This document shows positions 6,829-50,704 of a stretch of DNA of 58,516 nucleotides, piece after piece (positions within the stretch are counted from its first letter, which is position 1; every line of letters begins with the position of its first letter). This DNA is from a virus (taxonomy: Duplodnaviria; Caudoviricetes): IMG/VR virus record IMGVR_UViG_3300023179_000123, positions 1 to 58,516 of that record; one strand, 5' to 3'. The position numbers and the translations under genes are program-made. The notes under the pieces were generated by a model. That model ran no database searches. It was given only the letters and a program-made list of their open reading frames with translations, and was not told the origin of the DNA.

Positions 6829-7308
6829 TTAATAACCCAACATAATATTTATTGGTGAATAAGGTGTTTGTTTAGTTGTAATATTTTGTGCTGTTAGATA
6901 TTTAATAGTACCATTAAATGACATCCAACGAAGCGGTGGTGTGGAGAATACTATATTAGATGAACTTATCTCATACCCTGAATTGAAGGGTTCAATCTCA
7001 GATAAATTTAAATAATCATGTAAATGTTCTGTAGCTTGTATGGGAAAATTTCCTAGATAAATTTTTAATGCATATGGGCTTTTAGGTATAACCGATACGC
7101 CATTGACTTTTAGCGGAAAGATTTTATCAATACCATTAAATAACGGCGATATATCATCAAGTATATCTTCTGATCCTGCGCCAGTACTAGGAGAATTACT
7201 TACTGTTAAATTTCCAGTAAGTACTATATTACCTATTGTTACATTAGCTAATTGAGCAGAATTACCTAAAAGTTCTTTTACTAGATAGGTTGAATATTGT
7301 AATGCCAT
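6829..7308 (-). CDS. Virion structural protein, hypothetical
   Basis: Likely start MALQYSTY at 7308 (TAATG overlap); LDDISPLFNG..FPL motif. Confidence 0.55.
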   Translation of the reverse strand: MALQYSTYLVKELLGNSAQLANVTIGNIVLTGNLTVSNSPSTGAGSEDILDDISPLFNGIDKIFPLKVNGVSVIPKSPYALKIYLGNFPIQATEHLHDYLNLSEIEPFNSGYEISSSNIVFSTPPLRWMSFNGTIKYLTAQNITTKQTPYSPINIMLGY

Positions 7309-10300
7309 TAGTTTAACAATCTCCAACCATATGTTACGTTAAAATAAACAAATCCAAAATATGAATCTTCTGTATCAGATTCAAAATTATCGAATTGCCC
7401 CATGATTTTGCTACCGTTTCTTAAAATGGTCAATTTCTTAGTATCGAATGAACTGGTACCATCCAAGAAATAAACAGTATCCCCAAGTCTCGGATTTGGT
7501 GGTAAATTTATAAATGCAGGAACTGCTGCAGTGTTTACAATATATTTATATCCAGGTGCTGCAGTAGCATTCCCGGATATTTCTGCCCAACGTTCTGAAA
7601 CTGTAGCTATGGGCGCATTGCCCATATGAGTAACTTCAATTGATACATTTGCTGGAGGTGCTTCATTAAATGTTAGTACTGAACCAGATAAAGTATACTC
7701 TGTTTGGTGTTGTTTTAATCCATCAAACGATACTAATAATGCAGCTCCGCTACTTGGAGTTCTACTTAATGAAAACTGTGTGTTGGAACCGTTTGCTGTA
7801 AACGAATCTACTGCAAAACCTTCCCCCAAATCAACAAACGTGCCTACAGATAAAATATCACCTGCTTCTGCGCCCACTAATAAAGTAACTGCAGTACCGT
7901 TAGACGTATAATCTAATGTTGGTTCAAGTAATACACCATTAAGGTGTACTTGCATTCTTTGTGTACTAGGTATAATAAGTATCTGGGATGTATCATCAGT
8001 TCCAGCAAATATTGTTTGCGACGCATTAGCTGTATATCTGTATTTCTGGTAGGCAGCAACATTTGATGAAAGAGTAGCTGGTCCCCAAGTATTACCTAAC
8101 CATGTCAGTGCTTGTCCTGTTGTTGGCGCAGTGTTTGAAACATTTTTTAATTGTCCTATTACTAATTCGTTCTGTGAATTACTAAATGTTCTTACGAAAA
8201 TATTTGCGCCAGAATCAGGGGCGGAAGTAAATGCCAATACGCTATTAGTTATATTATAATTATAACTTGGTTGTTGTATAACACCATTAACGAAAACTAA
8301 AGCTTGATTTGAATCTCCACTAATATAACTTAAATTAAAGTTAGTATTACTACCATCTCCCAAGAATTCTTGGTTAGCTACTGTGCCAAGGAAAAACTTA
8401 GTATTATATACAGAGTCTGTGGAAAAATATTTTACAGAAATTACAGAATTGGATGAGGGTATTTCATCAAATACCAAATATTGACCTGAAGTAGTGTAAT
8501 TATTTGGATAATTTTGATTTATTCCATCCACATATACTAATACATTATTAGGTGTGGCTGGAGTGAATCCCATGTTAAAAGACGTGTTCGTCCCATCACC
8601 ATAGAATATAGATGTTTGTTGTGCTCCTATTAAAAGAACATTTGAACCCCCTCCTCCACCAGAAACAGTACCGGGTTGCCAGATATTACCTGACCATACT
8701 AATGCTTGTCCTGTGCTGGGTACAGTATTGCTTACATCTAAAAATATACTTAAGTTAGATGTAGCTAATCTAGCATCTACTCTAGCATTTGTAAAATATA
8801 GATTAGCGCCCTCTGATATATTAGATGTATTTAATACTATGGTGCCATTAGCACCATTAACTGAGGTGACGCCTCCAGTTACAGTTATAATACCATTTGC
8901 TTGGTCATAACTTCCTGATCCTGATACTGAAATGGCAGACCTAACTCTGCTGTTAGTGTAATATAGATTAGTGACTTCTGATACATTAGCAGTGGTTAAT
9001 AATGGACTTATATTAGCATAAACACGAGTATTTGTATAATAAAGATTAGTGACTTCTGATACATTAGCAGTGGTTAATAATGGACTTATATTAGCATAAA
9101 CACGAGTATTTGTATAATAAAGATTAGTGCCTTCTTCTATATCAGTTGTACTGGTTGCTAAATTATAATATGCAGTACCATTATTGGTAAATTGCCATCT
9201 ATCAGTACTTTCATTCCATTTTAAATCTACATTAGCACTTGATCCTCTGTTAACTAAAATTCCTGCGTCAAGTACAGGAGATCCGGTATGATTAGAATTT
9301 AGAACTACTTGATTATCTGCAACTGTTAATGTTTGAGAATTTAATGTAGTAGTATTACCAGATACTATCAAATTACCTGTTACTACAGCATCCCCCGCTA
9401 TAGTAATAGTTGTAGATGTAATATCATTACTATATAATCTACCATTAACTGTAATGTCATTTACAGTGACAAAATTAATGTTAGCCGCATTACCTAAAAG
9501 TGTGGTAATATTAGCACTATTTACAACCAATCCATCGGTCCTAGATTGTAGTAATGTCCCGCCCAAATCAATAGTGTTTCCTGAAAGATATAAATCTTTC
9601 CATCTATTTGTCGCATTACCTAAATTATAAACCGAATTCTGTGAAGGTATTATATTGCCATCGAATGCAGTGAAATAAGATTTAACTCTTGCATTAGTAT
9701 AGTAAAGATTTCCGCCCTCAGCGATATTGGTAGTAGTTAATACTACAGCGCCGTTCGCACCATTAACTGTTGTAACCCCGCCAGTAACTGTAATAATACC
9801 ATTCGCTTGGTCATAACTACCTGATCCTGTTACTGAAATAGCTGCTCTAGCACGAGCATTTGTGAAATATAGATTTGTGCCTTCAGCTATTTGAGTAGTT
9901 GTGGAATTTAAAACATTAGCTACAGGAGTAGGTTCCCATAAACTTGTTGCACCGTTATAAACTAAGATATTATTTGCAACAGGTGTAATATATGCTGCAA
10001 AATCGCCCAAATTGCTTAAGTTTAAATCTATTTGTTCTGATGAAAAATACCTATATGAAATATAAGCATTTGTTTCAGGCGGCGAAGTAAAGGTTAAAAC
10101 ATTTGAACTAACAGTGTAGTTTTGTATAGGTGTTTGTAAAACAGAATCTACAAATACTAATATAGCATTAGCAGATTGAGGAACAAAGGTTAAATTATAA
10201 TTTGAAGTACTATTATTTCCATAAAATTCACCAGTAAATAATCTACCTATTAAAAATGCATTAGATGTATCTGCTGAAATTACACCAGTATTGGAATTAT

Positions 10301-13300
10301 AAACTATACCTACACCTGCCGAAAGAGCTGCCCTTGCTCTTGCATTAGTAAAATATTGATTAGTTAATTCTACTACATTAGCAGTTGTTAAGTCTGCAGT
10401 TTTAGCATAACCTAAAAGATTGGCATCAAAACTTATTGATTGAGGAGTCGCATTAGTATTAAGAGTAATAACAATATTATTACCAGGTATAAATCTAACG
10501 GTATCTAATCCAGATGCTACAAGATTTGCTTGTCCTAGTACGTTCCAATATTTAAATGTTGAATTTAATTGTACTTTTGCTATACCATTCGCTCTATCTA
10601 AAACCTCAAATCCAGAATCAGAATCAAATTGTAAAGTATTTACGTTGGCAACACTGGTAGTAGCTACATTCGAAATATTAACTAACTGTACTTGTAACCC
10701 AGAAGTAATAATACCTGTAGTTACATTGTAGTTAATACCATTAGCAGCACTAATAGAGCTTCTTACTCTAGCATTGGTATAATATAAATTTGTACCTTCA
10801 GTTACATTACTTGTGGTTAAATCTACGACATTTGCTTTTAGGTTTAATAATCCAATTACATTGGAATAAACACGAGCATTTGTATAGTATAGATTTGTAA
10901 CTTCTGCAACATTGGCAGTAGTTAAATCTACGACATTTGCTTTTAGGTTTAATAATCCAATTACATTGGAATAAACACGAGCATTTGTATAGTATAGATT
11001 TGTAACTTCTGCAACATTGGCAGTAGTTAAATCGACTACGTTGGCTTTATTATTAAGTAATCCAATTACATTGGAATAAACACGAGCATTTGTATAGTAT
11101 AGATTTGTAACTTCTGCAACATTGGCAGTAGTTAATAATGGACTTATATTTGCATAAACTCTAGCATTAGTGTAGTATAAATTAGTACCTTCAGTAATAT
11201 TAGAAGTAGTAGCACCTTGAATTATATTTGCATATAATATATTAGCTCTTACTGCACCTGGAACAGTAATATTACCAGTATTGTCAAAAGTGAAGTTGTA
11301 ACTACCAGCAATAACTATAGTATTAGAGCCAGTGCCAATTAAATTGCCGCCAATATTTCCCGAATAGTTGGGAAGTAAAACAGTTACATTGGAATAAACT
11401 CTAGCATTAGTATAATATAAATTCGTTAATTCTGCAACATTAGCTGTAGTTAAAAGAGGACTAATATTGGAATAAACACGAGCATTTGTATAATATAAAT
11501 TCGTTAATTCTGCAACATTAGCTGTAGTTAAAAGAGGACTAATATTGGCATAAACTCTAGCATTAGTATAATATAAATTCGTTAATTCTGCAACATTAGC
11601 TGTAGTTAAATCTACTACGTTGGCTTTATTATTAAGTAGTCCAATAACGTTAGCATAAACACGTGCATTAGTATAGTATAGATTTGTTCCTTCAGTTACA
11701 TTGCTTGTAGTCAAATCTACGACATTTGCTTTTAGGTTTAATAATCCAATTACATTCGAATAAACTCTAGCATTAGTATAATATAGATTTGTGACTTCTG
11801 CTACGTTAGCAGTAGTTAAAAGAGGACTAATATTGGCATAAACACGAGCATTAGTGTAATATAGATTACTGCCTTCAGCTATATTTGATGTAGTAGCACC
11901 TTGAATTATATTTGCATATAATATGTTTGTTCTAATTGTACCTGGTGCAGAGAAAACACCTGTATTATCAAATACATAATTGTAACTACCAGCTAATATT
12001 ATTGTATTCTGCGTGGTTCCTACTATATTGCCGCCTATATTACCTGTGTAGTTAGGTAATAAAGAAATTACATTAGAGTAAACTCTTGCATTAGTATAAT
12101 ATAAATTTGTTACTTCAGAAACATTAGCTGTAGTTAATAATGGATTGATGTTCGCATAAACACGTGCATTGGTATAATATAAGTTAGTACCTTCAGTTAC
12201 ATTGCTTGTGGTCAAATCTACGACATTTGCTTTTAAGTTTAATAATCCTATTACATTAGAGTAAACTCTAGCATTAGTATAATATAAATTCGTTAATTCT
12301 GCAACATTAGCTGTAGTTAAATCGACTACATTAGCTTTTGCGGCGAAATTCGGTGTTAAATAAGCGCCTACTCTAGCATTTGTATAATATAAATTAGTGC
12401 CTTCAATTAAATTAGAAGTAGTATGATTTAATAAAGTACTTACTGTTCCTGTTACATTTCCAATAAAACCACTAGCTTGAACGTTTGCTAAACGAAATGT
12501 CGTATTACTTGTGTCTATAAATATCGATGTGTCCGGTTCTGGTTCGTAATTCTCAAAGAATTTCCATATACCATCTGTTGCATCTCTAAACAACCCAGAA
12601 TGATGATATATTCCGTCGTTATACCCACCCGCAAATCCTAGATCTGGATTCGCAGATGCTTTTATAAATGCATTGCCGCCTGTAACATATGAATCAGTGA
12701 CATTACTAGAAATAGTAATAGTATTAGCAGTAACAGCAATGATTGGAACGTATGAAGTATTAAAGGTAGAAGGATTCACACCTGTAACTCTAACTACGTA
12801 TCCTACCTGTTCATTATGTGTTCCTGCTACAGTGTATGTTACATTTGACCCATTTCCTACAGCATTAGTTATATTTTCAGCAACTGCCTCATTCAGATAA
12901 ATCATATTATCAGAAATGGATACCGATCTAGTGTTCAAAAGTGTCGCATTTCCAGCAAAGGTGACATTACCTGTAACTAATAAATCTTTGAATTCAACGG
13001 AAGATGATGTGGCAACATTCTGCCCGATGGATATGACACCTGTGGTATTACTATATGTTACACCAGTACCACCGGAAATAGCTGTTCTAACTCTACTATT
13101 AGTGTAATACAGATTAGTGGTTTCCACCACATTTGCCGTAGTTAATTTTGGAGTTACGAACGAGTCTACTCTATTATTTGTATAATAAAGATTAGTTCCC
13201 TCATTCAAATTTGATGTAGTATTGCCAGAAGTTAAGACAGAATTGCCTTTAACTATAATATTTTTATTAGATTCAAATGAATCCGACGCAGTTCTATATA

Positions 13301-14051
13301 AAAGATTAGCATTTACATAATCTATAACTATACCTGAACCATCAGTGGCGGCAGCATTTGGCGCACCATTGGACAATACAATTACTTTATTATCTACCTG
13401 CAATGTAGCAGAGATAACTAAAATATTTGAATTAATAGCTGTAATATTACCTAATACAGTAAGATTACCTTCTACGATTAAATCATGTAGTGAAAGATCG
13501 GTATTAGTTAGAGCTGCGCGCGCTCTTGCATTCGTAAAATATAAATTAGATAATTCAGCTACATTGGCTGTGGTTAATAATGGACTTATATTAGCATAAA
13601 CACGAGCATTGGTGTAATATAGATTACTACCTTCAGCCAGATTGCTTGTAGTAGCACCTTGAATCACATTAGCATAAAGAATATTAGTTCTTACCGCACC
13701 TGGAATAGTAATATTACCAGTATTGTCGAAGGTAAAGGAATAACTACCTGCTATTACGCTAGTATTAGTATAATTACCTATTAAGTTGCCTGCTCCTATA
13801 TTGCCAGTGTAATTTGGCAATAAACTTGTTACGTTTGAGTAAACACGAGCATTAGAATAAAAAAGATTGGCCGATCCCTCAATCAAACGATCTGTATTAC
13901 CAGCACCTAGTAAAAATATATTTCCAGTGCCATCTTTGGTAAAAAGTTGTCGATCAGCAAGATTAACCGCAAGTTCACCTACGGCCACGTTGGCAGCGTC
14001 AGGCACTCTCCCTGACACCGAGGAGCGTTTAATTTGAAATTGATTAGGCAT
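7308..14051 (-). CDS. Giant repeat-containing tail fibre (2247 aa)
   Basis: N-terminal QIKRS...GELAVNLADRQLF (Mtd_N-like anchor), about 27 TTxNxxExxNLYYTNAR repeats, and several F.GDG....F.L...LVFVDG beta domains. Confidence 0.8.
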   Translation of the reverse strand: MPNQFQIKRSSVSGRVPDAANVAVGELAVNLADRQLFTKDGTGNIFLLGAGNTDRLIEGSANLFYSNARVYSNVTSLLPNYTGNIGAGNLIGNYTNTSVIAGSYSFTFDNTGNITIPGAVRTNILYANVIQGATTSNLAEGSNLYYTNARVYANISPLLTTANVAELSNLYFTNARARAALTNTDLSLHDLIVEGNLTVLGNITAINSNILVISATLQVDNKVIVLSNGAPNAAATDGSGIVIDYVNANLLYRTASDSFESNKNIIVKGNSVLTSGNTTSNLNEGTNLYYTNNRVDSFVTPKLTTANVVETTNLYYTNSRVRTAISGGTGVTYSNTTGVISIGQNVATSSSVEFKDLLVTGNVTFAGNATLLNTRSVSISDNMIYLNEAVAENITNAVGNGSNVTYTVAGTHNEQVGYVVRVTGVNPSTFNTSYVPIIAVTANTITISSNVTDSYVTGGNAFIKASANPDLGFAGGYNDGIYHHSGLFRDATDGIWKFFENYEPEPDTSIFIDTSNTTFRLANVQASGFIGNVTGTVSTLLNHTTSNLIEGTNLYYTNARVGAYLTPNFAAKANVVDLTTANVAELTNLYYTNARVYSNVIGLLNLKANVVDLTTSNVTEGTNLYYTNARVYANINPLLTTANVSEVTNLYYTNARVYSNVISLLPNYTGNIGGNIVGTTQNTIILAGSYNYVFDNTGVFSAPGTIRTNILYANIIQGATTSNIAEGSNLYYTNARVYANISPLLTTANVAEVTNLYYTNARVYSNVIGLLNLKANVVDLTTSNVTEGTNLYYTNARVYANVIGLLNNKANVVDLTTANVAELTNLYYTNARVYANISPLLTTANVAELTNLYYTNARVYSNISPLLTTANVAELTNLYYTNARVYSNVTVLLPNYSGNIGGNLIGTGSNTIVIAGSYNFTFDNTGNITVPGAVRANILYANIIQGATTSNITEGTNLYYTNARVYANISPLLTTANVAEVTNLYYTNARVYSNVIGLLNNKANVVDLTTANVAEVTNLYYTNARVYSNVIGLLNLKANVVDLTTANVAEVTNLYYTNARVYSNVIGLLNLKANVVDLTTSNVTEGTNLYYTNARVRSSISAANGINYNVTTGIITSGLQVQLVNISNVATTSVANVNTLQFDSDSGFEVLDRANGIAKVQLNSTFKYWNVLGQANLVASGLDTVRFIPGNNIVITLNTNATPQSISFDANLLGYAKTADLTTANVVELTNQYFTNARARAALSAGVGIVYNSNTGVISADTSNAFLIGRLFTGEFYGNNSTSNYNLTFVPQSANAILVFVDSVLQTPIQNYTVSSNVLTFTSPPETNAYISYRYFSSEQIDLNLSNLGDFAAYITPVANNILVYNGATSLWEPTPVANVLNSTTTQIAEGTNLYFTNARARAAISVTGSGSYDQANGIITVTGGVTTVNGANGAVVLTTTNIAEGGNLYYTNARVKSYFTAFDGNIIPSQNSVYNLGNATNRWKDLYLSGNTIDLGGTLLQSRTDGLVVNSANITTLLGNAANINFVTVNDITVNGRLYSNDITSTTITIAGDAVVTGNLIVSGNTTTLNSQTLTVADNQVVLNSNHTGSPVLDAGILVNRGSSANVDLKWNESTDRWQFTNNGTAYYNLATSTTDIEEGTNLYYTNTRVYANISPLLTTANVSEVTNLYYTNTRVYANISPLLTTANVSEVTNLYYTNSRVRSAISVSGSGSYDQANGIITVTGGVTSVNGANGTIVLNTSNISEGANLYFTNARVDARLATSNLSIFLDVSNTVPSTGQALVWSGNIWQPGTVSGGGGGSNVLLIGAQQTSIFYGDGTNTSFNMGFTPATPNNVLVYVDGINQNYPNNYTTSGQYLVFDEIPSSNSVISVKYFSTDSVYNTKFFLGTVANQEFLGDGSNTNFNLSYISGDSNQALVFVNGVIQQPSYNYNITNSVLAFTSAPDSGANIFVRTFSNSQNELVIGQLKNVSNTAPTTGQALTWLGNTWGPATLSSNVAAYQKYRYTANASQTIFAGTDDTSQILIIPSTQRMQVHLNGVLLEPTLDYTSNGTAVTLLVGAEAGDILSVGTFVDLGEGFAVDSFTANGSNTQFSLSRTPSSGAALLVSFDGLKQHQTEYTLSGSVLTFNEAPPANVSIEVTHMGNAPIATVSERWAEISGNATAAPGYKYIVNTAAVPAFINLPPNPRLGDTVYFLDGTSSFDTKKLTILRNGSKIMGQFDNFESDTEDSYFGFVYFNVTYGWRLLN
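8945..9150 (-). repeat. 78-nt coding tandem repeat within the fibre gene
   Basis: TNLYYTNTRVYANISPLLTTANVSEV duplicated with near-identical DNA. Confidence 0.85.
10760..12425 (-). repeat. Array of 78-nt and 105-nt coding repeats within the fibre gene
   Basis: 15 NLYYTNARV units with 26-aa or 35-aa period, interrupted by two longer spacer modules. Confidence 0.9.
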
Positions 14052-14109: not shown

Positions 14110-15489
14110 CTATGTATTGGTTATGGTAAATATTATTGGGTTTGATAAAGAAGGCAACGAAGCATTACTTGATGCGCTAAAACCTGTAGAATTAAAAGTA
14201 CAGTTATAAAGACCTACAGCAAGATAGTAAGTTCCTGCTGAAAGAGATACGGGAGAACTGGGCGCATTTTCCGAACCGGCTCCAGAACCTGGAATTTGGC
14301 TTTCTAAATTCCCAGCAGAATCATCATCTTTCACTATAAGATTGCCCGAAGAATTGTATAATGCTATTTCAGTATCATAACCATTGGTTGTGGGGGCAGT
14401 AGTAGCGGTAAATGTTCTTGTAGATCCTAAAATAAATTTGTACCAAGCGATATTATTTAATACGTGATTGCCGGAGGGATTCACTGACGCATTTGATTCA
14501 TTACTTGAAATAGTAATAGGCGCCAGAACAGTATGACTTATTGAACTTGATGATGATGTTGATACACTATTCCACGCTTGAATAGAAAAAGTGCAATCTT
14601 CAGTAACAGTTTCTGATACACTTGTAGTAGAAGAATTAAAATGTTTATAGATTGAGCCATTTTTATATAATCTAACTACATCTGCGTTTGATGTGGACCA
14701 TGATAATGTAGTACTTCCTCCGCCTATACCAAAACTACTTGTACTTGAAGAAAAGCTACTAATTGAAGGGCTACCTTCTGCGGTATAAGTATCATTTAAA
14801 CTAACAATAGTAGTTCCTACTAATGTGCCGCTATGGCTTCCAGTTCTTACTTGAAATGTTAGTGATTCTGTTCCTTCAGTTAATCTATCAGGAGTTACAG
14901 TAAATGTCTTACTTGCTGATCCAGAACTAACCGAAAAAGTACCAGTCTCAGTAGGCGTAGCCTCTAAAGTTGCATATTCTGGTTGATTCGCAACATCAGC
15001 TAAAAATTGATTTAAAGTATTGTAATTATCTATTAAAAAATTATTGGTGTGATAATCAACTGCTACGGTAGATTCTGGGAATCTACCCAACAATCTTGTA
15101 TATACCTTGTTAACTATACTTCCATATCCTGTTGCTCCGCTACTCGAATATGAAGTATTTTGATATGTATAATTAGCAGCATCTAAATCTCTAGTGTTAA
15201 CACCACTTAAAGTATAATATAGTGTAGTTCCATTTGCAACATATTTTGTAGTTGTGGTAAAGGTTAATGAATCGCCCTCATTAGCAGATGCTGCACTAGA
15301 AGATACAGTGTATGTTAAATCTTGTCCGCCGCAATCCGCACTAAGTCTTATTTGTCCTGTTGTAATTGAAGGATTTCTATTCGCACCTAGAGTTCCTCTC
15401 AATCCTAAATTAGAATAAGATGTACTTCCAGTAAAAAAGTTATAAACTTGACTAAATGTTATCTGTGAACCTACCGCGGGAGTACCCAT
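14110..15489 (-). CDS. Tail-tip adhesin-like protein (Calx-beta-like, DUF4214-like insert, Ig-like and PPC-like domains)
   Basis: SANEGDSLTFT...DRLTEGTESLTF; VNKVYTRLLGRFPE; YDTEIALYNSSG...DDDS...LSAGTYYLAV; follows the S74 fibre. Confidence 0.6.
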   Translation of the reverse strand: MGTPAVGSQITFSQVYNFFTGSTSYSNLGLRGTLGANRNPSITTGQIRLSADCGGQDLTYTVSSSAASANEGDSLTFTTTTKYVANGTTLYYTLSGVNTRDLDAANYTYQNTSYSSSGATGYGSIVNKVYTRLLGRFPESTVAVDYHTNNFLIDNYNTLNQFLADVANQPEYATLEATPTETGTFSVSSGSASKTFTVTPDRLTEGTESLTFQVRTGSHSGTLVGTTIVSLNDTYTAEGSPSISSFSSSTSSFGIGGGSTTLSWSTSNADVVRLYKNGSIYKHFNSSTTSVSETVTEDCTFSIQAWNSVSTSSSSSISHTVLAPITISSNESNASVNPSGNHVLNNIAWYKFILGSTRTFTATTAPTTNGYDTEIALYNSSGNLIVKDDDSAGNLESQIPGSGAGSENAPSSPVSLSAGTYYLAVGLYNCTFNSTGFSASSNASLPSLSNPIIFTITNT

Positions 15490-18400
15490 TACTTAGCTAA
15501 CCTTTTAACTAATTCTTTTAGTTCTTCGATTTGAGATTGTTGTTCTTTAATTGCCTCGATTAACAACGGGACAATTTTTTCATATCTAACTGCTTTGTAG
15601 CCATCGTCTTTTTTCGCAACTACTTCTGGTAATACTTTTTCTATTTCTTGTGCAATAACACCAATATCTTGTTTTCTAACAAAATATCCATCCTCACCGC
15701 CTCTAGAATTAATATAATCTTCAGTCCAATCAAAGTTCACACCTCTGATACTTAGCAACTTTTCTAAAGGATTTTGAATGACCGCAACATTTTCTTTTAA
15801 TCTTTCATCTGAAGAATAATATGCTGTTATCTCACCTGTAGCAGTAATGGATCCCGTTACTGTTAAAGAACCAGTACTTAAAGATTGATTGGTAGATGTT
15901 CCTCTTGCAGTAACAGTAGCTAATGTATCAGTTTCTGAATAACTAGTAATATATCCCCTAGTAGTCACATAGTTTTCTGTGGCATATCCAGCAAGTGCCG
16001 AAGATGTTATAAAATTCGCACCATTAGTTAACTGGTTGGTATTAGTTGGTATTGTAATAACACCTGATCCACTATTGTACCCACCTGATCCTGCAGTAAA
16101 ACTTAATGAGGAAAGAGTAATGTAACCAGAACCATTAGTTAATTGATTTGTATTAGAAGGAATAGTTGGTTTATTACTTAAATCTGTATAGCTACCGCTG
16201 AAATTAGAATAACCATAACCAGCTGAAGCATGATTGCCCCAACCATATGCTGTATCCCAATTAGCAGTTTTTTCTGTACCGTTACTAACAAATCTTATAT
16301 TAGTGCCATCATTGTAAATTCTATTATTATTACTTACTGTATTAGAACTGGGTGGTATGAATAAATTATTGCCATATCTTAAAGTAATACCATCTGTAAC
16401 TAAACCATCGTCAAACGTCTTTACGCCACCAATAGTTTGTGTTCCAGAAGTACTTACGTCTCCCGTGCCTAGTTTAGTACCATCATAATATAATCCATCA
16501 GATTTACCGATTAAGTCTTTACTTACACCTCCAAATGTAAATTTAACATCAGTTGTATAAAGGTTTCCTGGGAAAGATGTTTTGCCATCTGAGCCATAAA
16601 ATGTAATCGCTTTATAACTAGTGGTACTAGGTGTCTTAACAGACAAACTTATATTATCCCCTACGTCTACCAAAGTTCCTGTTGGATAATTAGTATTTGC
16701 AGCAGCATTAATCCATAAAGCACTTTGTGACAATATCGGAGAAGTAAATGTCTTGACCCCGGTTAATGTTTGATTTGTAGCAGTCAAAACATATGAGGTA
16801 TTAGAAGTTAGTACATACGAAGTATTTGAAGTTCTAACAACTGAAGCATCAACTGCTACTGCATCCGCACTCACCGTGATACCATCACCTTGGCCGACAT
16901 TCAATGTTACATCTGGACCACCTTCACTAGACCCCGTTAATCCACTTCCCGCTGTAACAGAAGTAACATCACCTCCGCCGCCACCTGATCCAGTTATAGT
17001 AATGGTATTGGCATCTGTTCGAGCAATTGAAACTGTGCCTGCCCCTATTAAATTAACGTTGTCAATTGATGAATCTGATCCAGTTATTCTTATATTTGCG
17101 CCAGATGTAGCTGTTTCAGCACTAATACCGTAGGTCGTGTTAGTATCTGTATCAGGGGGGGTCGCCCAGGAACCATCTGCTCTCAAGAAGTTACTAGTAG
17201 AACCAGTTGCTTTAGGAAGCGTAGATGTGCCGTCAATAGTTATGCCTGTGGGTTGGAAAGTTACTACGTCAATTGCAGTGCCTGCTTTTGACAATCCATA
17301 TGTATTTGATGATAAAGAATAATATATTGAACCTTTATTATTAACAGCACCAAAATTTATAGTATTTGATGTTAAATACGTACTATTTAAATAAGTAGTT
17401 CCAGAAAATGTCTTTGTACCAGTTATAGTTTGCGTTCCTGCAATTAAAACGTATGAGGTATTAGAAGTTAGTACATACGAAGTATTTGAAGTTCTAACAA
17501 CTGAAGCATCAACTGCTACTGCATCCGCACTCACTGTGATACCATCACCTTGGCCGACATTCAATGTTACATCTGGACCAGATTCGCTAGTTCCGGTTAA
17601 TCCACTTCCCGCCGTAACAGAAGTAACATCACCAGTGCCACCTCCTCCTTGTAATCCAGTTATATCGAGGGTAGATGTGGCATTTTGAAAATAAAGACGC
17701 CCACCACTACCAAATATTCTATGTGTTGCTGATGTATTTAAGTTAATGAATCTATCATTAGCAATCAATATATTACCAGTAGTAGTAGTGTTAGCAGCAT
17801 TTAATTGTATCTGCCCTGTACTTCCTGCGGAATCTATGTAGATTACATTACCATCTGGGACATAAGCTTTTGGTCCTGAATTGGCTGATACACCATTAAA
17901 ACCATTTAAAGTTAGATATAGCTTATTAGTGTTCGGACCCAATCCATTCAAAACCACATCGCTTGAAAATGTTTTGGTTCCAGTAAATGTTTGACTTGTA
18001 CTTAGAGTTGCTAAATAATCAGTATTAGCTGCGAATGAACCACTAGACGTAATAGTGGTCGGATTAGCTATTATACCGGTTCCCGCAGTTAATGATACTG
18101 CACCTGAACTTGTGCCAATAGTACTACCATTTATAGTTGATCCTGCAGGTAAATTGACTATACCTGCGCCCGGAGATGTTATTTGCGCACTGCCTAGATA
18201 TATAGTAGAACCTGATAGATATAAATCTTTCCACCTAAAATTAGAAGCACCCAAATCAAATATATTGTTAGAGGACGGCAATAAATTAGAAGATATTACT
18301 GCCGAATTACCATTTGCATTAGCGTTTAGTTTAAATATAACATTACTATTAACACTAAATGCCATATGGTCATAAATATTGTCATAGTAAATACTAGTAT

Positions 18401-20939
18401 CAGCAGTATCATTTACATCATCTACAAAATTTAATGCTGCTCCGCCTGATTTATTTAAAATAATCATACCATTCGAATAGATACTATCTGCTACTAAAGT
18501 ATTAGCTATTCTAATTTCACCACTAACAAGCACATTGCCGGCCAATACGTTTCCAGTAATACTAGCATTTGAAATATTGGTGCTTGCAATACCCGCAGCT
18601 AATCTTGCATTTGATACTGCTCCTGTGGTTACATCTGATACTTGTGTAATAGAACCAGAGCCGCCACCGCCGCCTGCTCCTTCTAGGCCAGTTATATCTA
18701 ATGTATTTGTACTATTTTGAAAATAAAGACGCCCACCACTACCAAATATTCTATGTGTTGCTGCTGTATTTAAGCTAATAAACCTATTAGTACTGATTAG
18801 TATATTACCGGTTGAAGCAACATTGGCCGCATTTAATTGTATCTGTCCTCTACTAGCATTAGCATCTATGTAAATTACATTGCCATCTGGCGCAGTGGGG
18901 CTAGAATTCGCACTAATTTGGTTTAAAGAATTTAATGTAAGATATAATTTACTACCACCTGGGGCATCACCTTGCCCATCTAAAATAACATTATCATCAA
19001 ATACCTTCATACCAAAGAATGTTTGAGTTCCAGTAGTTAGATAGGTATTACCAGAAGTAGCAATAACATTATCAGTAACAAGAGTTACAGCACCAGTTTT
19101 GCCATTAACTGATGTTACACCTGCACCTGAAACTGCTTGAGTAATATTAATTGTGTCAGTTGTATTTTGAAAAAATAAACTACCACCGCTAGCAAATAAA
19201 CGATGAACTGATGAGGTATTAAGATTAAGGAATCTATTATTAGCAATCAATATATTACCGGTTGAAGCAACATTGGCCGCATTTAATTGTATCTGTCCTC
19301 TACTAGCATTAGCATCTATGTAAATTACATTGCCATCTGGCGCAGTGGGGCTAGAATTCGCACTAATTTGGTTTAAAGAATTTAATGTAAGATATAATTT
19401 ACTACCACCTGGGGCATCACCTTGCCCATCTAAAATAACATTATCATCAAATACCTTCATACCAAAGAATGTTTGTGTAGTATTACTTACAAACACATTT
19501 GAAACAGTTTGAATAATATTGTCTGTATATAAAGTTACAGCACCAGTTTTGCCATTAACTGATGTTACACCTGCACCTGAAACTGCTTGAGTAATATTAA
19601 TTGTGTCAGTTGTATTTTGAAAAAATAAACTACCACCGCTAGCAAACAATCTATGTGTTGCGTCTACATTTAAATTTAAACTTCTATTAGATGGTAAACT
19701 AATATTTCCTGTAGCTACAATATTATTAGCATATAGATTTATAGTTCCACCGTTTTGAAACGTACCTAAAGTTAATGTCTTAGTAACACCATCTCCATAA
19801 ATTGCAGTATTGCCTGGGACATCTAGGTATAAGGTTGGACCAGTTACACCTGTGCCAGCAATAAAAATATTACTTGAGGTTCTTACATTAGCTCCAAAAC
19901 TGATTGAATTACCATTTGCATTAGCCTTTAATGCTAATAATACATTTCCGTTAACACTAAATGCCATATGGTCATAAATATTGTCATAATAAATACTAGT
20001 ATCAGCAGTATCATTTACATCATCTACAAAATTTAATGCTGCTCCGCCTGATTTATTTAAAATAATAACAGCATTAGCACGTACATTATCTGCTAAAATA
20101 CTAGAATCAACTCTAATGTCACCTGTTACTAATACATTACCTGCATTGATATTTCCACTAGTCCCATTAGAAAGATTAATAGTACTAGTGGAATTTTTGA
20201 AATATAGTTGACCGCCAGATGCGAATAGATAATGAGAACTCTCCACATTTAATCTAAGTACTGCATTAGCTGGCATAATAACATTGCCATTAGCAACAAT
20301 ATTACTAGTATAAAGATTAAGTGTACCACCGTTGGTATTGTTACCAATTGTTATTACATTTGCGGCCGCTGGATCAGACGATGAAATAGAATTTGCCTGT
20401 ATAGCATTCCAACCAGGAATATCTAAGTATAATGTAGATCCTGTAGAATCTAATCCTTTACCATTTAAAAACACATCACCGTAAAAATATACTCTAGCAT
20501 TTGCATTATCTTGTATTACATTACCTCTAAGATATGCATTATCAGAAATATAGGTATTATAGGAATCAATAAAGACATTGCCTTGTCTTGAATTGGAATT
20601 GATATAGATGTAATTAGGACCAATAGAATATATTTGATCTACACTTGATGCTCCAAGAAACAAATTGCCCCGATAGTAATCACTAGATCTATCTAAAACT
20701 ACGTTTCCAGTAACGCCTATAGTATTTGGTGTTTTTAAGTAAAAACCTGTTCCTACATTGCCGCTCCATGCGTAACTTGGCCTAGTAGCAGATGAAGTAA
20801 TATTTGCTAGAAATTGTCCACCATTGTACAACCCCGCAAAATTACTATTAATTTTTTGAAAGGCAGTTCTTAAAGGATCACCAGTATTATCATTAGCTGC
20901 GCTTCCAACACCTATTACTAATACGTTACTTGTTAGCAT
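15489..20939 (-). CDS. Tail fibre with C-terminal peptidase S74 intramolecular chaperone
   Basis: N-terminal GSAANDNTGDPLRTAFQKINSNF attachment motif; C-terminal SSDERLKENV...GVIAQEIEKVLPEVV...IVPLLIEAIKEQ. Confidence 0.85.
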   Translation of the reverse strand: MLTSNVLVIGVGSAANDNTGDPLRTAFQKINSNFAGLYNGGQFLANITSSATRPSYAWSGNVGTGFYLKTPNTIGVTGNVVLDRSSDYYRGNLFLGASSVDQIYSIGPNYIYINSNSRQGNVFIDSYNTYISDNAYLRGNVIQDNANARVYFYGDVFLNGKGLDSTGSTLYLDIPGWNAIQANSISSSDPAAANVITIGNNTNGGTLNLYTSNIVANGNVIMPANAVLRLNVESSHYLFASGGQLYFKNSTSTINLSNGTSGNINAGNVLVTGDIRVDSSILADNVRANAVIILNKSGGAALNFVDDVNDTADTSIYYDNIYDHMAFSVNGNVLLALKANANGNSISFGANVRTSSNIFIAGTGVTGPTLYLDVPGNTAIYGDGVTKTLTLGTFQNGGTINLYANNIVATGNISLPSNRSLNLNVDATHRLFASGGSLFFQNTTDTINITQAVSGAGVTSVNGKTGAVTLYTDNIIQTVSNVFVSNTTQTFFGMKVFDDNVILDGQGDAPGGSKLYLTLNSLNQISANSSPTAPDGNVIYIDANASRGQIQLNAANVASTGNILIANNRFLNLNTSSVHRLFASGGSLFFQNTTDTINITQAVSGAGVTSVNGKTGAVTLVTDNVIATSGNTYLTTGTQTFFGMKVFDDNVILDGQGDAPGGSKLYLTLNSLNQISANSSPTAPDGNVIYIDANASRGQIQLNAANVASTGNILISTNRFISLNTAATHRIFGSGGRLYFQNSTNTLDITGLEGAGGGGGSGSITQVSDVTTGAVSNARLAAGIASTNISNASITGNVLAGNVLVSGEIRIANTLVADSIYSNGMIILNKSGGAALNFVDDVNDTADTSIYYDNIYDHMAFSVNSNVIFKLNANANGNSAVISSNLLPSSNNIFDLGASNFRWKDLYLSGSTIYLGSAQITSPGAGIVNLPAGSTINGSTIGTSSGAVSLTAGTGIIANPTTITSSGSFAANTDYLATLSTSQTFTGTKTFSSDVVLNGLGPNTNKLYLTLNGFNGVSANSGPKAYVPDGNVIYIDSAGSTGQIQLNAANTTTTGNILIANDRFINLNTSATHRIFGSGGRLYFQNATSTLDITGLQGGGGTGDVTSVTAGSGLTGTSESGPDVTLNVGQGDGITVSADAVAVDASVVRTSNTSYVLTSNTSYVLIAGTQTITGTKTFSGTTYLNSTYLTSNTINFGAVNNKGSIYYSLSSNTYGLSKAGTAIDVVTFQPTGITIDGTSTLPKATGSTSNFLRADGSWATPPDTDTNTTYGISAETATSGANIRITGSDSSIDNVNLIGAGTVSIARTDANTITITGSGGGGGDVTSVTAGSGLTGSSEGGPDVTLNVGQGDGITVSADAVAVDASVVRTSNTSYVLTSNTSYVLTATNQTLTGVKTFTSPILSQSALWINAAANTNYPTGTLVDVGDNISLSVKTPSTTSYKAITFYGSDGKTSFPGNLYTTDVKFTFGGVSKDLIGKSDGLYYDGTKLGTGDVSTSGTQTIGGVKTFDDGLVTDGITLRYGNNLFIPPSSNTVSNNNRIYNDGTNIRFVSNGTEKTANWDTAYGWGNHASAGYGYSNFSGSYTDLSNKPTIPSNTNQLTNGSGYITLSSLSFTAGSGGYNSGSGVITIPTNTNQLTNGANFITSSALAGYATENYVTTRGYITSYSETDTLATVTARGTSTNQSLSTGSLTVTGSITATGEITAYYSSDERLKENVAVIQNPLEKLLSIRGVNFDWTEDYINSRGGEDGYFVRKQDIGVIAQEIEKVLPEVVAKKDDGYKAVRYEKIVPLLIEAIKEQQSQIEELKELVKRLAK
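16792..17580. repeat. Near-exact direct repeat of about 130 nt, 660 nt apart
   Basis: 16792-16920 vs 17452-17580, one mismatch seen. Confidence 0.8.
18801..19646. repeat. Exact direct repeats with 450-nt period inside the fibre gene
   Basis: 18801-19025 = 19251-19475 and 19083-19196 = 19533-19646 by eye. Confidence 0.9.
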
Positions 20940-46390: not shown

Positions 46391-46961
46391 ATTTTTCTAA
46401 ATCTACTTTAAGAAAAGGTTTATATTTGTCTATTAGTCTAGATATGTCTGGCCATAATACTGTATCAGTTATATGATGATTAAAACTATCTCTATAATTT
46501 AATATTTGTTCTAGTATTACTAAAGTTTCAATATTAATAGTTTTTCTTAAATATGCTTTTATTATATATGGATGTTGACCTTTGGTAATGGAAAATAAAT
46601 GGTTCAAATCAAATTTATTATCTTCCATTTCTTGAACAAGTTTATTTAAATCATTTTCAAAATTATAGTGAAGTGCTTCCAATCTTTTTTTCCATTGAAT
46701 ATATCTTTCGTTTGCCTCAGTATCAAACACACCTCCCCATCTATCACCTGATACAAAATTAGCAATTAAAAAGTTCGCTACTTCTTCATCAGAATAATTT
46801 TTAGCAATTTTGTTAATTGCGTATAAATCTTTTCTTTTTAAAAACGCTGTTTTTGTTGCCCTCACCTTGCCTTTTTGCTTAACTACATCATATTTATCTG
46901 TAGTAAAATGTAATTTTAATGCTAGATAAAATCTATAAACTTCAAACGCATCCATTATCAT
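46338..46961 (-). CDS. gp59: Helicase loader gp59
   Basis: YLALKLHFTTDKYD...F.KRKD...ETLVIL...KYKPFL; 33-59-32 synteny. Confidence 0.92.
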   Translation of the reverse strand: MIMDAFEVYRFYLALKLHFTTDKYDVVKQKGKVRATKTAFLKRKDLYAINKIAKNYSDEEVANFLIANFVSGDRWGGVFDTEANERYIQWKKRLEALHYNFENDLNKLVQEMEDNKFDLNHLFSITKGQHPYIIKAYLRKTINIETLVILEQILNYRDSFNHHITDTVLWPDISRLIDKYKPFLKVDLEKYERIFRTIIGYNPTKDS

Positions 46962-47209
46962 AAAGGAAGTTTGCCTCGTTTTTTCAAAAAATTCTGCTCT
47001 TCAGCTTCCAATTGTATTTTATCCTTTAAAGATTTATTAATAAGTCCTGCAATATTTTCAATATCAATATCTATTTCTTCACAATAAGAAATAACTGCTT
47101 CCATATAACCAATTTTTGTATCCTGCACTTTTTTCTCAATGTACAAAGAAAATTCGTTTGGTGATCTAAACTTCTTGGTTATTATTAAACTATCTGTTAT
47201 GGGTTTCAT
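46958..47209 (-). CDS. gp33: Late transcription coactivator gp33
   Basis: FSLYIE...YMEAV..YCEE..ID...LINKSLKDKI..EA...NFL. Confidence 0.92.
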   Translation of the reverse strand: MKPITDSLIITKKFRSPNEFSLYIEKKVQDTKIGYMEAVISYCEEIDIDIENIAGLINKSLKDKIQLEAEEQNFLKKRGKLPL

Positions 47210-48421: not shown

Positions 48422-48457
48422 TTACTTCTCCTTTGTGTTTGTGTGTAATAATAAAAA

Positions 48458-48703
48458 GGCAGTTCTTTGGGTAACAAGGTGAACTGCCAATGCCCCGTCA
48501 GGTTTAAGCGGCTAGCTTAAGGTCCTGATAAAAATAGTCGTCGTTTGCGTCTATTTGCTTTTGCTAGGATTACGTCCTTCGCCTGTCGAGCAGCCTCAAA
48601 AGATACTTTACAGTCAATCGATACCAATTCATCCCCCTCGTCTTGGAGATGCCGAGATTCGAACTCGGGTCTTGCCCAGATTTCTCAATTTTGGTTTACT
48701 GCT
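48458..48703 (-). ncRNA. ssrA: tmRNA, circularly permuted (two-piece) gene
   Basis: Acceptor piece first (T-arm CCGAG-TTCGAAT-CTCGG, then CATCTCC-A ending at 48644), 7-nt spacer, then GGGGATG from 48636 (G3.U70). Tag ORF 48548-48504 ANDDYFYQDLKLAA* follows ATAGAC. Confidence 0.92.
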
Positions 48704-49370
48704 ATTCTTTAGTTAATCTTTCATATTCGTTTCTATACAATAACAAATACTTAACCCAATTATCCCTTTTTTCAAAAAATACTTGCGGGTAATCATTTTC
48801 TACAGCAATGATTATAACTAATCTATTTATTGGAACACCGGTTAATTCTTCGTACATTATGGAATATGCTGCACATTGCATAAAGTATGAATGGATATGA
48901 TCTTTTTCTTTTCTTCTCGATGAAGTTTTAAAATCAATTACCGCCAATTTGCCTTTATACTCACCTATACAATCAACTGTACCAGAAAGGCGCAGGTGAT
49001 TAGAATACATTTGTTGTTCTTGACAATGAACATTATCTATGTTTTCTAGTATAGGTTGAATAGATAGAAAATTTTTAAGATCGAAAGGATTTTTAATTTC
49101 ACAATCTTCATTATTAATGTATTTTTCAACTATACTGTGTAATCTTGTCCCTCTACTGGCAGCCGTTTTTGAGATTCTTAACGCCTCAGCTTCTCCAACT
49201 CTTTTACGCCATTCTATAAGTCCTTGTTTATTGTGTAAAGAAAGAATTGTAGTAACTGAAGGATACTTATTGCCGTCAGGTGTTATATAGTATCTGGTAC
49301 CATCTGGTCTTGTTACTCTTTCCAATTTAGGTATGGGCTTCGTTGTCCCAACATGATAAAATTGCTTCAA
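48702..49370 (-). CDS. PD-(D/E)XK exonuclease
   Basis: YPSVTTIL...RGTRLH...GTVDCI...IDFKTS...YFMQCAAY. Confidence 0.9.
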   Translation of the reverse strand: MKQFYHVGTTKPIPKLERVTRPDGTRYYITPDGNKYPSVTTILSLHNKQGLIEWRKRVGEAEALRISKTAASRGTRLHSIVEKYINNEDCEIKNPFDLKNFLSIQPILENIDNVHCQEQQMYSNHLRLSGTVDCIGEYKGKLAVIDFKTSSRRKEKDHIHSYFMQCAAYSIMYEELTGVPINRLVIIIAVENDYPQVFFEKRDNWVKYLLLYRNEYERLTKE

Positions 49371-49373
49371 GTA

Positions 49374-50006
49374 CTATCCCTGCAATATTTCAATAGCATG
49401 ATTATAATGTTTAACACGATCTTCTAACCCAATGAAGCCGCCATTAATACGTTTTGTTATCATTTTTAAATCTTGAATATCTGCCAATTCATTTAATTTA
49501 TTAGAAGTCCAGAACCAACAGGCAGAATGAAGCGCATAATATGGTTGTGTTAGTACATCTGGGTTCTGAAGTAAGGTATCATCCTCAAACATAGCCATAC
49601 TGCATCTTTGATAATTTGATTTACCGGTAAGTTGAATCAGACCTCTGCCTCTATATCTATAGCCTTCGCCTGAAGCTTCAGGTCCATTACCCATTCTATT
49701 TGCATAAACCCGGTTAGCAATTTTTTCAGGTTGTCTGTGGTATTGTTGTGCAATCTCAGCAGTTGGGAAATATTTTGGGAAAACTTTTCTTAAACCATCA
49801 GCAGAATAATTTAAATTCTCAGATAATAAAGTGAAACCGCCAGATTCATGCGCACATTGGGCAATGAATGCAGCAGTTCTAGCAATATCATTAATCTCAT
49901 ACTGAGGCAACACATCAACTAATGATTCATACCATTCACTTAAATTTTTGACACGAGGTATAAGATGTTGTAGTTGTTCCTCAGTAAAATCGAAATCAAA
50001 TGACAT
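49374..50006 (-). CDS. Glycoside hydrolase 19 endolysin
   Basis: FIAQCAHESGGF, YRGRGLIQLTG..NY, ITKRINGG..GLEDR. Confidence 0.92.
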   Translation of the reverse strand: MSFDFDFTEEQLQHLIPRVKNLSEWYESLVDVLPQYEINDIARTAAFIAQCAHESGGFTLLSENLNYSADGLRKVFPKYFPTAEIAQQYHRQPEKIANRVYANRMGNGPEASGEGYRYRGRGLIQLTGKSNYQRCSMAMFEDDTLLQNPDVLTQPYYALHSACWFWTSNKLNELADIQDLKMITKRINGGFIGLEDRVKHYNHAIEILQG

Positions 50007-50382
50007 TGTTTTTCTCCTTAAAATCTTTTATAGCAGCCTTGATCGCATCCTCTGCCAATATGGAGCAGTGTATTTTAACGGGTGGTAACGCAAGTTCTTC
50101 TGCAATTTGAGTATTGCGAATAGTGCCGGCTTCGTCGAGACTCTTACCCTTGACCCATTCCGTAACGAGCGAACTAGACGCAATCGCTGAACCACATCCA
50201 TATGTTTTAAATTTAGCATCCGTAATGATTCCATTTTCATCTACCTGTATTTGTAGTTTCATTACATCTCCGCAAGCAGGTGCGCCAACCATGCCTGTAC
50301 CTATTCTTTTCACTTCTTTAGCAAAAGAGCCAACATTACGAGGATTTTCGTAGTGATCTAATACTTGAGAAGAGTAAGACAT
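49996..50382 (-). CDS. iscU: Fe-S cluster scaffold IscU
   Basis: Start MSYSSQVLDHYENPRNVG at 50382; GAPACGD, GCGSAIAS, LPPVKIHC. Confidence 0.96.
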   Translation of the reverse strand: MSYSSQVLDHYENPRNVGSFAKEVKRIGTGMVGAPACGDVMKLQIQVDENGIITDAKFKTYGCGSAIASSSLVTEWVKGKSLDEAGTIRNTQIAEELALPPVKIHCSILAEDAIKAAIKDFKEKNNVI

Positions 50383-50383
50383 T

Positions 50384-50704
50384 TTATGCAGCGAAAGATG
50401 AGCCACAACCACAAGTAGTTGTAGCGTTAGGATTTTTGATTACAAACTGTGCAGATGCTATATCTTTTTTATAATCTATTTCGGCTCCATCCAGATAGGA
50501 CATGGACATGGCATCAACTAATAATTTTACCCCATCTTTTTCTAATACAAAATCATCATCACCTTGTTTTTCATCAAATGTAAAACCATACTGAAATCCC
50601 GAACAACCTCCGCCCTGAATAAAAACTCTTAAAGGTGATGATTCATTTTCTTCTAATTGAACTTGTCTGATCTGATTGAAGGCTTTGTCTGTAACTGTTA
50701 ACAT
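50384..50704 (-). CDS. erpA: A-type Fe-S carrier ErpA/IscA
   Basis: [11 protein letters not shown] and [14 protein letters not shown]. Confidence 0.92.

Follow-up and report, generated by a model that had tools for sequence, protein, structure and literature searches.

The window, by which we mean the whole 58.5-kb stretch of a virus record that was analysed, carries a tmRNA locus on its minus strand at 48703-48452. The gene is permuted: the T arm and the 3' strand of the acceptor come first, followed by the acceptor's 5' strand and then the tag frame. The acceptor piece (48644..48703, minus strand; 60 nt before CCA addition) is delimited by the alignment to the Rfam family RF04321, by sequence and by covariation, and holds the T arm CCGAG-UUCGAAU-CUCGG (48668-48652), the acceptor 3' strand CAUCUCC (48651-48645) and the discriminator A73 (48644). 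Next comes an intervening segment of 7 nt, AGACGAG (48637..48643, minus strand), in which CCA is absent; it is read directly from the sequence and is identical in a related contig, L002. The coding piece (48453..48636, minus strand), delimited by the same three kinds of evidence as the acceptor piece, supplies the acceptor 5' strand GGGGAUG (48636-48630), which pairs with CAUCUCC to give a 7-bp acceptor stem with a G3.U70 pair, and includes the D-loop-like GGUAUCGA. Two P2 pairings join the pieces, AGCAG (48703-48699) with CUGCU (48593-48589) and CAAAA (48693-48689) with UUUUG (48601-48597), and there are further P2 strands on the 5' side (UGG, 48678-48676; CAA, 48674-48672) and on the 3' side (UUG, 48617-48615; CUG, 48613-48611). 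The PK1-region hairpin AGGA-CGUAA-UCCU (48578-48566) stands ahead of the tag frame (48504..48548, minus strand), which is read in the sequence from a GCA resume codon (48548-48546) to a UAA stop (48506-48504) and encodes (A)ANDDYFYQDLKLAA. ARAGORN calls the same tag in two related loci, L009 and L099, and it recurs in L009-L011, L027 and L044.

Beyond the stop codon, where the RF04321 alignment ends, lies a 3' element (48453..48496, minus strand) made up of GGGG (48496-48493), a hairpin with the strands GGCAGUUC (48488-48481) and GAACUGCC (48465-48458), and a run of five U (48457-48453). The hairpin aligns to a conserved helix of the betaproteobacterial tmRNA family RF01850. Its loop holds CCUU at 48479-48476, part of a motif, CCUUGU(U)AC, that is kept in relatives and is complementary to the upstream GGGG. 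The coding piece of a two-piece tmRNA is described as typically having both PK1 and PK2 (PMC3985003), and GGGG and the loop motif probably form the PK2-like pseudoknot, a pairing that we infer, since it is invariant and covariation is no test of it. In the window the 3' element would also act as a terminator, yet its hairpin is more than that, being a conserved part of beta-type tmRNA; the near-identical copy on L002 has the hairpin with no U-run after it. A terminator scan of the window did not call the hairpin, because it accepted loops of up to 8 nt only and this loop has 15 nt. The acceptor pairing, G3.U70, AGACGAG, the P2 helix, the tag and the 3' hairpin with its U-run, all of which had been listed in the first-pass annotation, are thus present on the minus strand; its reading that no CCA is encoded after A73 is likewise confirmed, as the bases that follow are AGA.

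The gene upstream encodes a PD-(D/E)XK (Cas4-like) exonuclease (48702..49370, minus strand; PHROG 298, E = 1e-71; Pfam PDDEXK_1, E = 3e-7). Its ORF runs into the 5' end of the acceptor piece, and its TAG stop (48704-48702) shares bases with the start of the tmRNA. Downstream, in the same orientation, is a gp33-like late-transcription coactivator (46958..47209, minus strand; Pfam PF16805, E = 3.7e-23), which is also found in the annotation of the Methylophilales phage Melnitz. PHROG and Pfam matches identify further T4-type genes in the window: baseplate genes of the gp5, gp6, gp25 and gp48 types and, besides the exonuclease and the gp33 coactivator, gp32, gp59, PhoH and a DNA ligase. Among cultured phages the closest are cyanomyophages, Pelagibacter phage HTVC008M and Melnitz, at just 35-56% protein identity, and blastn of the tmRNA locus against 50,697 cultured phage records gave zero nucleotide matches. 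The record is estimated to be 35% complete, its G+C content ranges from 29 to 38%, and RNA runs from the same study as the best-matching records are labelled 'freshwater metagenome'. To judge from this gene content and source, the tmRNA gene is carried by a genome fragment of an uncultured freshwater T4-like (Kyanoviridae-like) myophage. The order PhoH, PD-(D/E)XK nuclease, tmRNA, gp33, gp59, gp32 is common to the window and Melnitz, and the slot between the nuclease gene and the gp33-gp59-gp32 cluster appears to be a conserved site for tmRNA.

Two other features of the window deserve mention. NifU-like (49996-50412, minus strand; PF01592, E = 7e-52) and IscA-like (50384-50704, minus strand; PF01521, E = 1e-20) Fe-S assembly proteins are encoded between PhoH and an endolysin-like gene, and resemble auxiliary metabolic genes. 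Two huge minus-strand ORFs, 7308-14051 (2247 aa) and 15489-20939 (1816 aa), occupy the structural region beside the baseplate genes.

The RNA family search, made by Infernal with Rfam 15, matches RF04321 (tmRNA_permuted) to 48703-48504 over model positions 1-213 of 213, with 111.4 bits against a gathering threshold of 47 and E = 6e-21; a search of the window's own virus record with this model gave the same result. The first-pass annotation had called the locus a phage-encoded, circularly permuted tmRNA gene, and this is borne out by the RF04321 match together with the T4-like setting. RF01850 (beta_tmRNA) matches 48754-48452 with 84.6 bits against a gathering threshold of 84, a bare margin of 0.6; the alignment includes the conserved loop hairpin but not the G+C-rich hairpin at the end of the model, and relatives score 89-112 bits with this model. 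ARAGORN (including v1.2.41) called no gene in the window, so that the check by tmRNA models proposed earlier came out positive with the permuted Infernal model and negative with ARAGORN. The window shares this fate with others: ARAGORN 1.2.41 failed on 6 of the 19 sources tested (the window, L002, L004, L058, L231 and L007), and on four of these (the window, L002, L004 and L007) RF04321 reaches 108-115 bits.

Comparison with relatives supports the fold. Twenty-seven beta-like sequences with short spacers (18 from viruses, 9 from bacteria) were aligned and scored with a hand-written structure of 27 pairs: 96.2% of the cells are paired, against 41-55% with slid partners. Two-sided changes occur at 20 of the 27 pairs, and the observed score was reached by none of 500 shuffles. 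The pairing of the T and acceptor helices is partly circular and not independent, as both helices were selection criteria, and the G.U at acceptor position 3 found in 27/27 aligned relatives was likewise required by the selection pattern. For the helices outside the selection (P2c, P2a and the PK1 hairpin), 93-95% of cells are paired and 13 of 15 pairs show double changes; for the two P2 helices the figures are 93% and both-side changes at 9 of 11 pairs, a compensated example being CAAAA/UUUUG in the window versus CGGAG/UUUCG in L058. The tmRNA fold is backed by covariation across relatives. The minimum-free-energy fold of the 252-nt precursor recovers the acceptor stem and the 3' hairpin but does not surpass shuffles (z = -0.91); a single-sequence fold is uninformative for a pseudoknotted two-piece RNA.

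How usual is such a gene among the relatives of this phage? With the nuclease protein as query, 358 related viral stretches were found and 80 loci kept, and a pattern search of these nuclease-anchored loci (T arm, acceptor strands and spacer) identified a tmRNA in 65. Some of the other 15 loci are cut short and others have the tmRNA outside the flank; L008, for instance, is the same contig as L002, on which 4.8 kb separate the tmRNA from the nuclease gene. Whole-record searches with RF04321 gave a match in 42 of 50 related viral records (41 above the cut-off) and in 3/3 cultured phages tried, Melnitz, Mosig and HTVC008M. This carriage bears on the idea that the locus is a leftover of host origin, a fragment of bacterial ssrA acquired through imprecise excision or remaining at an integration site, and is not maintained as a phage gene. 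The ssrA gene is reported to be a frequent integration site, with fragments in prophages (PMC9004378). The gene in the window is nevertheless complete (acceptor piece, coding piece, tag and 3' element); the surrounding genome is T4-like, of lytic type and low in G+C; and the slot is occupied in the 42 related records and in Melnitz. Moreover, the tRNA-like motifs CAAGAC and GGUAUCGAUUG are confined to viral contigs among the sequences examined, and neither a near-identical bacterial chromosomal ssrA nor a flanking integrase or attachment site was seen. An origin as a remnant is therefore very unlikely.

The spacer between the pieces is where the window departs from its clade. In 64 of the 65 relatives CCA is encoded and followed by a remainder of 29-177 nt (spacer 32-180 nt), which mostly forms a closed stem and has ..UGAU at its end; the remaining relative, L007, has CCU and a 54-nt spacer. 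None of the 65 has a short CCA-less spacer, and that of the window is therefore unusual within its own clade. Many of the long spacers share a layout: a few bases after CCA comes a GGAG resembling a Shine-Dalgarno sequence, followed by the ATG start of a small ORF. Spacers of 85-180 nt occur in L059/L060/L084, L080/L081, L061, L085 and L066, and one of 145 nt in L357 (Melnitz); the Shine-Dalgarno and ATG were seen inside those of L059, L061, L080, L085 and Melnitz, and some of the ORFs reach or enter the acceptor 5' strand. The spacer of the window is the cargo-free extreme, the opposite of these long ORF-bearing spacers. A second T-arm-like motif lies inside the spacers of L009-L011 (85 nt) and L042 (75 nt), GGTTCGAATCC and GGGTTCGATTCCCCACCA, and these motifs may be tRNA-like passengers. 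The T loop varies as well: UGCGAAU occurs among the relatives' tmRNAs, and an atypical GGCAGUA replaces UUCGAAU in L007 (4682-4760), L099/L044 and L357 (Melnitz). L007, with its CCU in place of CCA, is the closest relative by nuclease gene, at 93% identity.

Short spacers do recur on other viral contigs. On L002 the acceptor piece is identical to that of the window at 60 of 60 positions, the spacer is the same, the coding piece is near-identical, the tag is again ANDDYFYQDLKLAA, and the flanks have 71-88% identity. L004 and L006, from two further records, have a second CCA-less spacer of 7 nt, AAACAGG, with the tag ANDDYFGEIRLAA and a compensated T stem, CCCGG/CCGGG. The diverged L193 and L231 also combine a CCA-less spacer of 7 nt with an intact, LAA-ended tag frame. 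The shortest design is that of L003 (6943-7126) and L005, which have the same sequence: the spacer is CCA alone, 3 nt, and ARAGORN calls the tag ANDAVYELAA. As the encoded 3' end abuts G1 there, a single RNase P cut would make both mature ends.

Segment by segment, the tmRNA of the window is a mosaic. Its tag domain is identical to that of L099/L044 at 81 of 81 aligned bases, and the similarity continues with 98.1% identity in the 3' tail and 98.3% over 297 nt further downstream; the tRNA-like domain of L099/L044, with CCA and a spacer of 41 nt, is unrelated. In this domain the window instead resembles L058 (CCA, spacer of 91 nt), at 83.1% identity in the acceptor piece and 90.2% in the P2-bearing 5' strand. 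The change of partner puts the breakpoint near 48587, immediately 3' of the P2 helix, so both strands of the tRNA-like domain moved together, the swapped part being 48587-48703. A join of this kind, an L058-like tRNA-like domain on an L099/L044-like mRNA-like domain, is what might be expected if a chimeric metagenome assembly had produced the short spacer or the mosaic. Such an artefact is scarcely credible: between its diverged flanks the independent contig L002 shows this acceptor piece and spacer again, and L004 and L006 supply the second 7-nt CCA-less variant from records of their own. The tRNA-like domain of the window appears, on these comparisons, to have been swapped as a cassette.

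The first-pass annotation read the gene as a minimal phage tmRNA whose loop would need unusual processing. A wider comparison does not support this. Genome and viral contigs were scanned for a T arm and acceptor 3' strand with the acceptor 5' strand 0-20 nt further on. Among the matches listed from genome contigs, 73 of 85 have no CCA, and 33 of the CCA-less ones, mostly from Prochlorococcus (CTATTT and similar), have a spacer of 6 nt; CCA-less spacers of 5-17 nt are found in the Prochlorococcus and Synechococcus genes listed. Among the matches listed from viral contigs, about 71 of about 121 loci with spacers of at most 20 nt (a few of them duplicates) are CCA-less, the CCA-less spacers being mostly of 4-7 nt. 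Genes of the beta type (Accumulibacter, Rhodocyclaceae) usually encode CCA and 3-6 nt more in a spacer of 6-9 nt, such as CCACTGC, CCACGAC or CCACTGA. AGACGAG and CCACGAC are of equal length and differ at three positions, both C's of CCA and the last base of the spacer; another beta-type spacer close to AGACGAG in length and letters is CCACTGG.

Burkholderiaceae provide a bacterial counterpart. Among 121 genomes sampled, 7 have a strong permuted ssrA; four of these genes have 7-nt spacers (CCACTGG, AAACTGG, TATCAGG and TATCAGG), three of the four without CCA, and the remaining 3/7 have spacers of 35-52 nt with CCA. The gene with AAACTGG lies on a contig (L304) of 61% G+C, with MatE, ABC-transporter and DUF748 genes as neighbours. 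Short CCA-less spacers are thus ordinary in bacteria, cyanobacteria and other phages, and that of the window is best read as the common beta-type spacer of CCA plus 4 nt with two C's substituted, not as a new processing design. Curators of the tmRNA database describe the CCA position as 'not always encoding CCA' and list 79 phage sequences in a collection of 97,179 (PMC11915505), and a phage survey counts 53 two-piece structures called by ARAGORN among 133 unique phage tmRNAs, 50 of the 53 being aquatic (Buchholz et al. 2022, PMC9004378). The phage lists of these two sources may already include the CCA-less beta-like sub-type with GGUAUCGAUUG.

The same comparison helps to decide whether the gene is a decoy or is decaying, its RNA, which has no encoded CCA and an acceptor stem shut by a short loop, remaining unmatured and uncharged and being either inert or a sponge for host SmpB and ribosomes that would inhibit trans-translation in the host. 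As CCA is near-universal in the nuclease-anchored clade, kept by 64 of 65 relatives, its loss in the window could be decay, and the gene is rejected by ARAGORN. There is also a precedent for a decoy in mycobacteriophage DS6A, whose tag-less tmRNA-like RNA is reported to inhibit endogenous tmRNA in E. coli (PMC11915505). The locus in the window, however, retains an intact tag frame and resume-codon context, G3.U70, A73 and all helices, and the helices are compensated in the diverged CCA-less copies. In Prochlorococcus, where the gene must work, CCA-less spacers are the rule among the matches listed, and in the Burkholderiaceae genome of contig L304 the CCA-less 7-nt design is the sole RF04321 match and hence the only permuted ssrA found. 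We consider a decoy or decaying gene unlikely, and predict with good but not full confidence, on the strength of these sequence comparisons, that the two-piece tmRNA gene (ssrA) of the window is a working gene of the phage and belongs to the betaproteobacterial type.

A functional gene of this kind would be transcribed together with or just after the nuclease gene, and transcription would stop at the 3' hairpin and U5. A promoter scan found 5 promoter-like sites where 5.1 were expected, with none above chance directly upstream of the tmRNA. No RNA run was listed as containing this stretch, and in the contigs of three metatranscriptome runs there is a single 159-nt contig, 90-95% alike and covering only 48461-48588, which comes from the tag domain of a relative and so bears neither on the RNA ends nor on expression in this phage. 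Host RNase P would then cut 5' of G1 (48636) to give two pieces, and either 3' exoribonucleases of the host or its tRNase Z would trim the 7-nt tail of the acceptor piece as far as A73 (48644). A review names RNase P and tRNase Z as the enzymes that 'probably' process permuted precursors (PMC3985003). As CCA is not encoded, it must be added after transcription, presumably by the host CCA-adding enzyme, and host AlaRS would charge the RNA with alanine through G3.U70 and A73. In tmRNA, alanylation is reported to be determined by just these elements and the 5' end to be made by RNase P (PMC3968760). Host SmpB and EF-Tu would bring the charged RNA into stalled ribosomes of the infected cell, translation would resume on the tag frame, and the LAA-ended tag would send the product to host proteases.

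Searches for SmpB (PF01668) and CCA-adding enzyme (PF01743) genes found none in the window (35% of a genome) or in five related records, two of which are near-complete (100% and 92%). From this we infer that the host supplies both; the earlier suggestion of CCA addition by the host is in keeping with it, host enzymes being the likely source. What the phage would gain is a matter for speculation: ribosome recycling might be kept up while host mRNA and the supply of host tmRNA decay.

Several known systems resemble this one in part. Phage T4 has CCA-less tRNA genes, whose products depend on the host both for 3' processing and for its CCA-adding enzyme. The RNA of the window is tRNA-like too, and its 3' end would likewise be trimmed and given CCA by the host, although the T4 RNAs are ordinary tRNAs and not a permuted tmRNA. 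Melnitz (GenBank MZ577097.1; its tmRNA annotated as SsrA), the pelagimyophages and the window phage are all T4-like aquatic myophages with a permuted tmRNA, and in Melnitz it occupies the same slot as in the window. The spacers differ, that of Melnitz having CCA and 145 nt and that of Mosig CCA and 47 nt, against 7 nt without CCA in the window. The Melnitz tmRNA has been grouped with alphaproteobacterial ones and a glutamine riboswitch has been reported (PMC9004378). The best sub-model for the window is beta_tmRNA, unlike that alphaproteobacterial placement, and an Rfam search of the window for riboswitch families gave none at threshold.

With the betaproteobacterial tmRNA (RF01850) the window shares the architecture, the 3' hairpin loop CCUUGUUAC, tags of the ANDxxF..LAA type and the short spacer. 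It differs in being phage-borne and low in G+C, in its longer tag (14 codons), in having GGUAUCGAUUG as D-loop-like motif in place of GGUUUCGAC, and in having no separate G+C-rich terminal hairpin as in the RF01850 model. Two-piece tmRNA was reportedly described by Keiler in 2000, the picocyanobacterial form (RF01851) by Gaudin et al. in 2002 and the betaproteobacterial form by Sharkady and Williams in 2004. The picocyanobacterial tmRNA and its cyanophage copies have a very short CCA-less spacer, as the window does, but belong to another lineage, with a different T-stem, P2 and tags (ANKIVSFSRQTAPVAA-like).

A bolder reading goes beyond the single swap in the window: phages would exchange a tRNA-like unit of ~115 nt (acceptor piece, spacer and 5' strand with the P2 helices) independently of the tag domain, and the CC replacement in 7-nt spacers would be selected, not neutral. 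Spacers with CC replaced are AGACGAG, AAACAGG, AATCTGG and AATCAGG in phages and AAACTGG and TATCAGG in Burkholderiaceae. We put this forward tentatively and think it rather improbable as a whole; if the replacement is selected, one possible reason is that maturation is thereby made dependent on the host CCA-adding enzyme.

The locus extends the known set of phages with two-piece tmRNA by a further uncultured one, T4-like and from freshwater, and it indicates that a short CCA-less spacer is a normal state of permuted ssrA genes of the beta and cyanobacterial types. ARAGORN is the tool of most phage annotators; as it misses a sub-group of which RF04321 finds members, surveys based on it undercount phage tmRNAs. 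Finally, the spacers of this clade, between 3 nt where CCA stands alone and 180 nt where small ORFs are included, offer a convenient natural series for the processing needs of permuted tmRNA.
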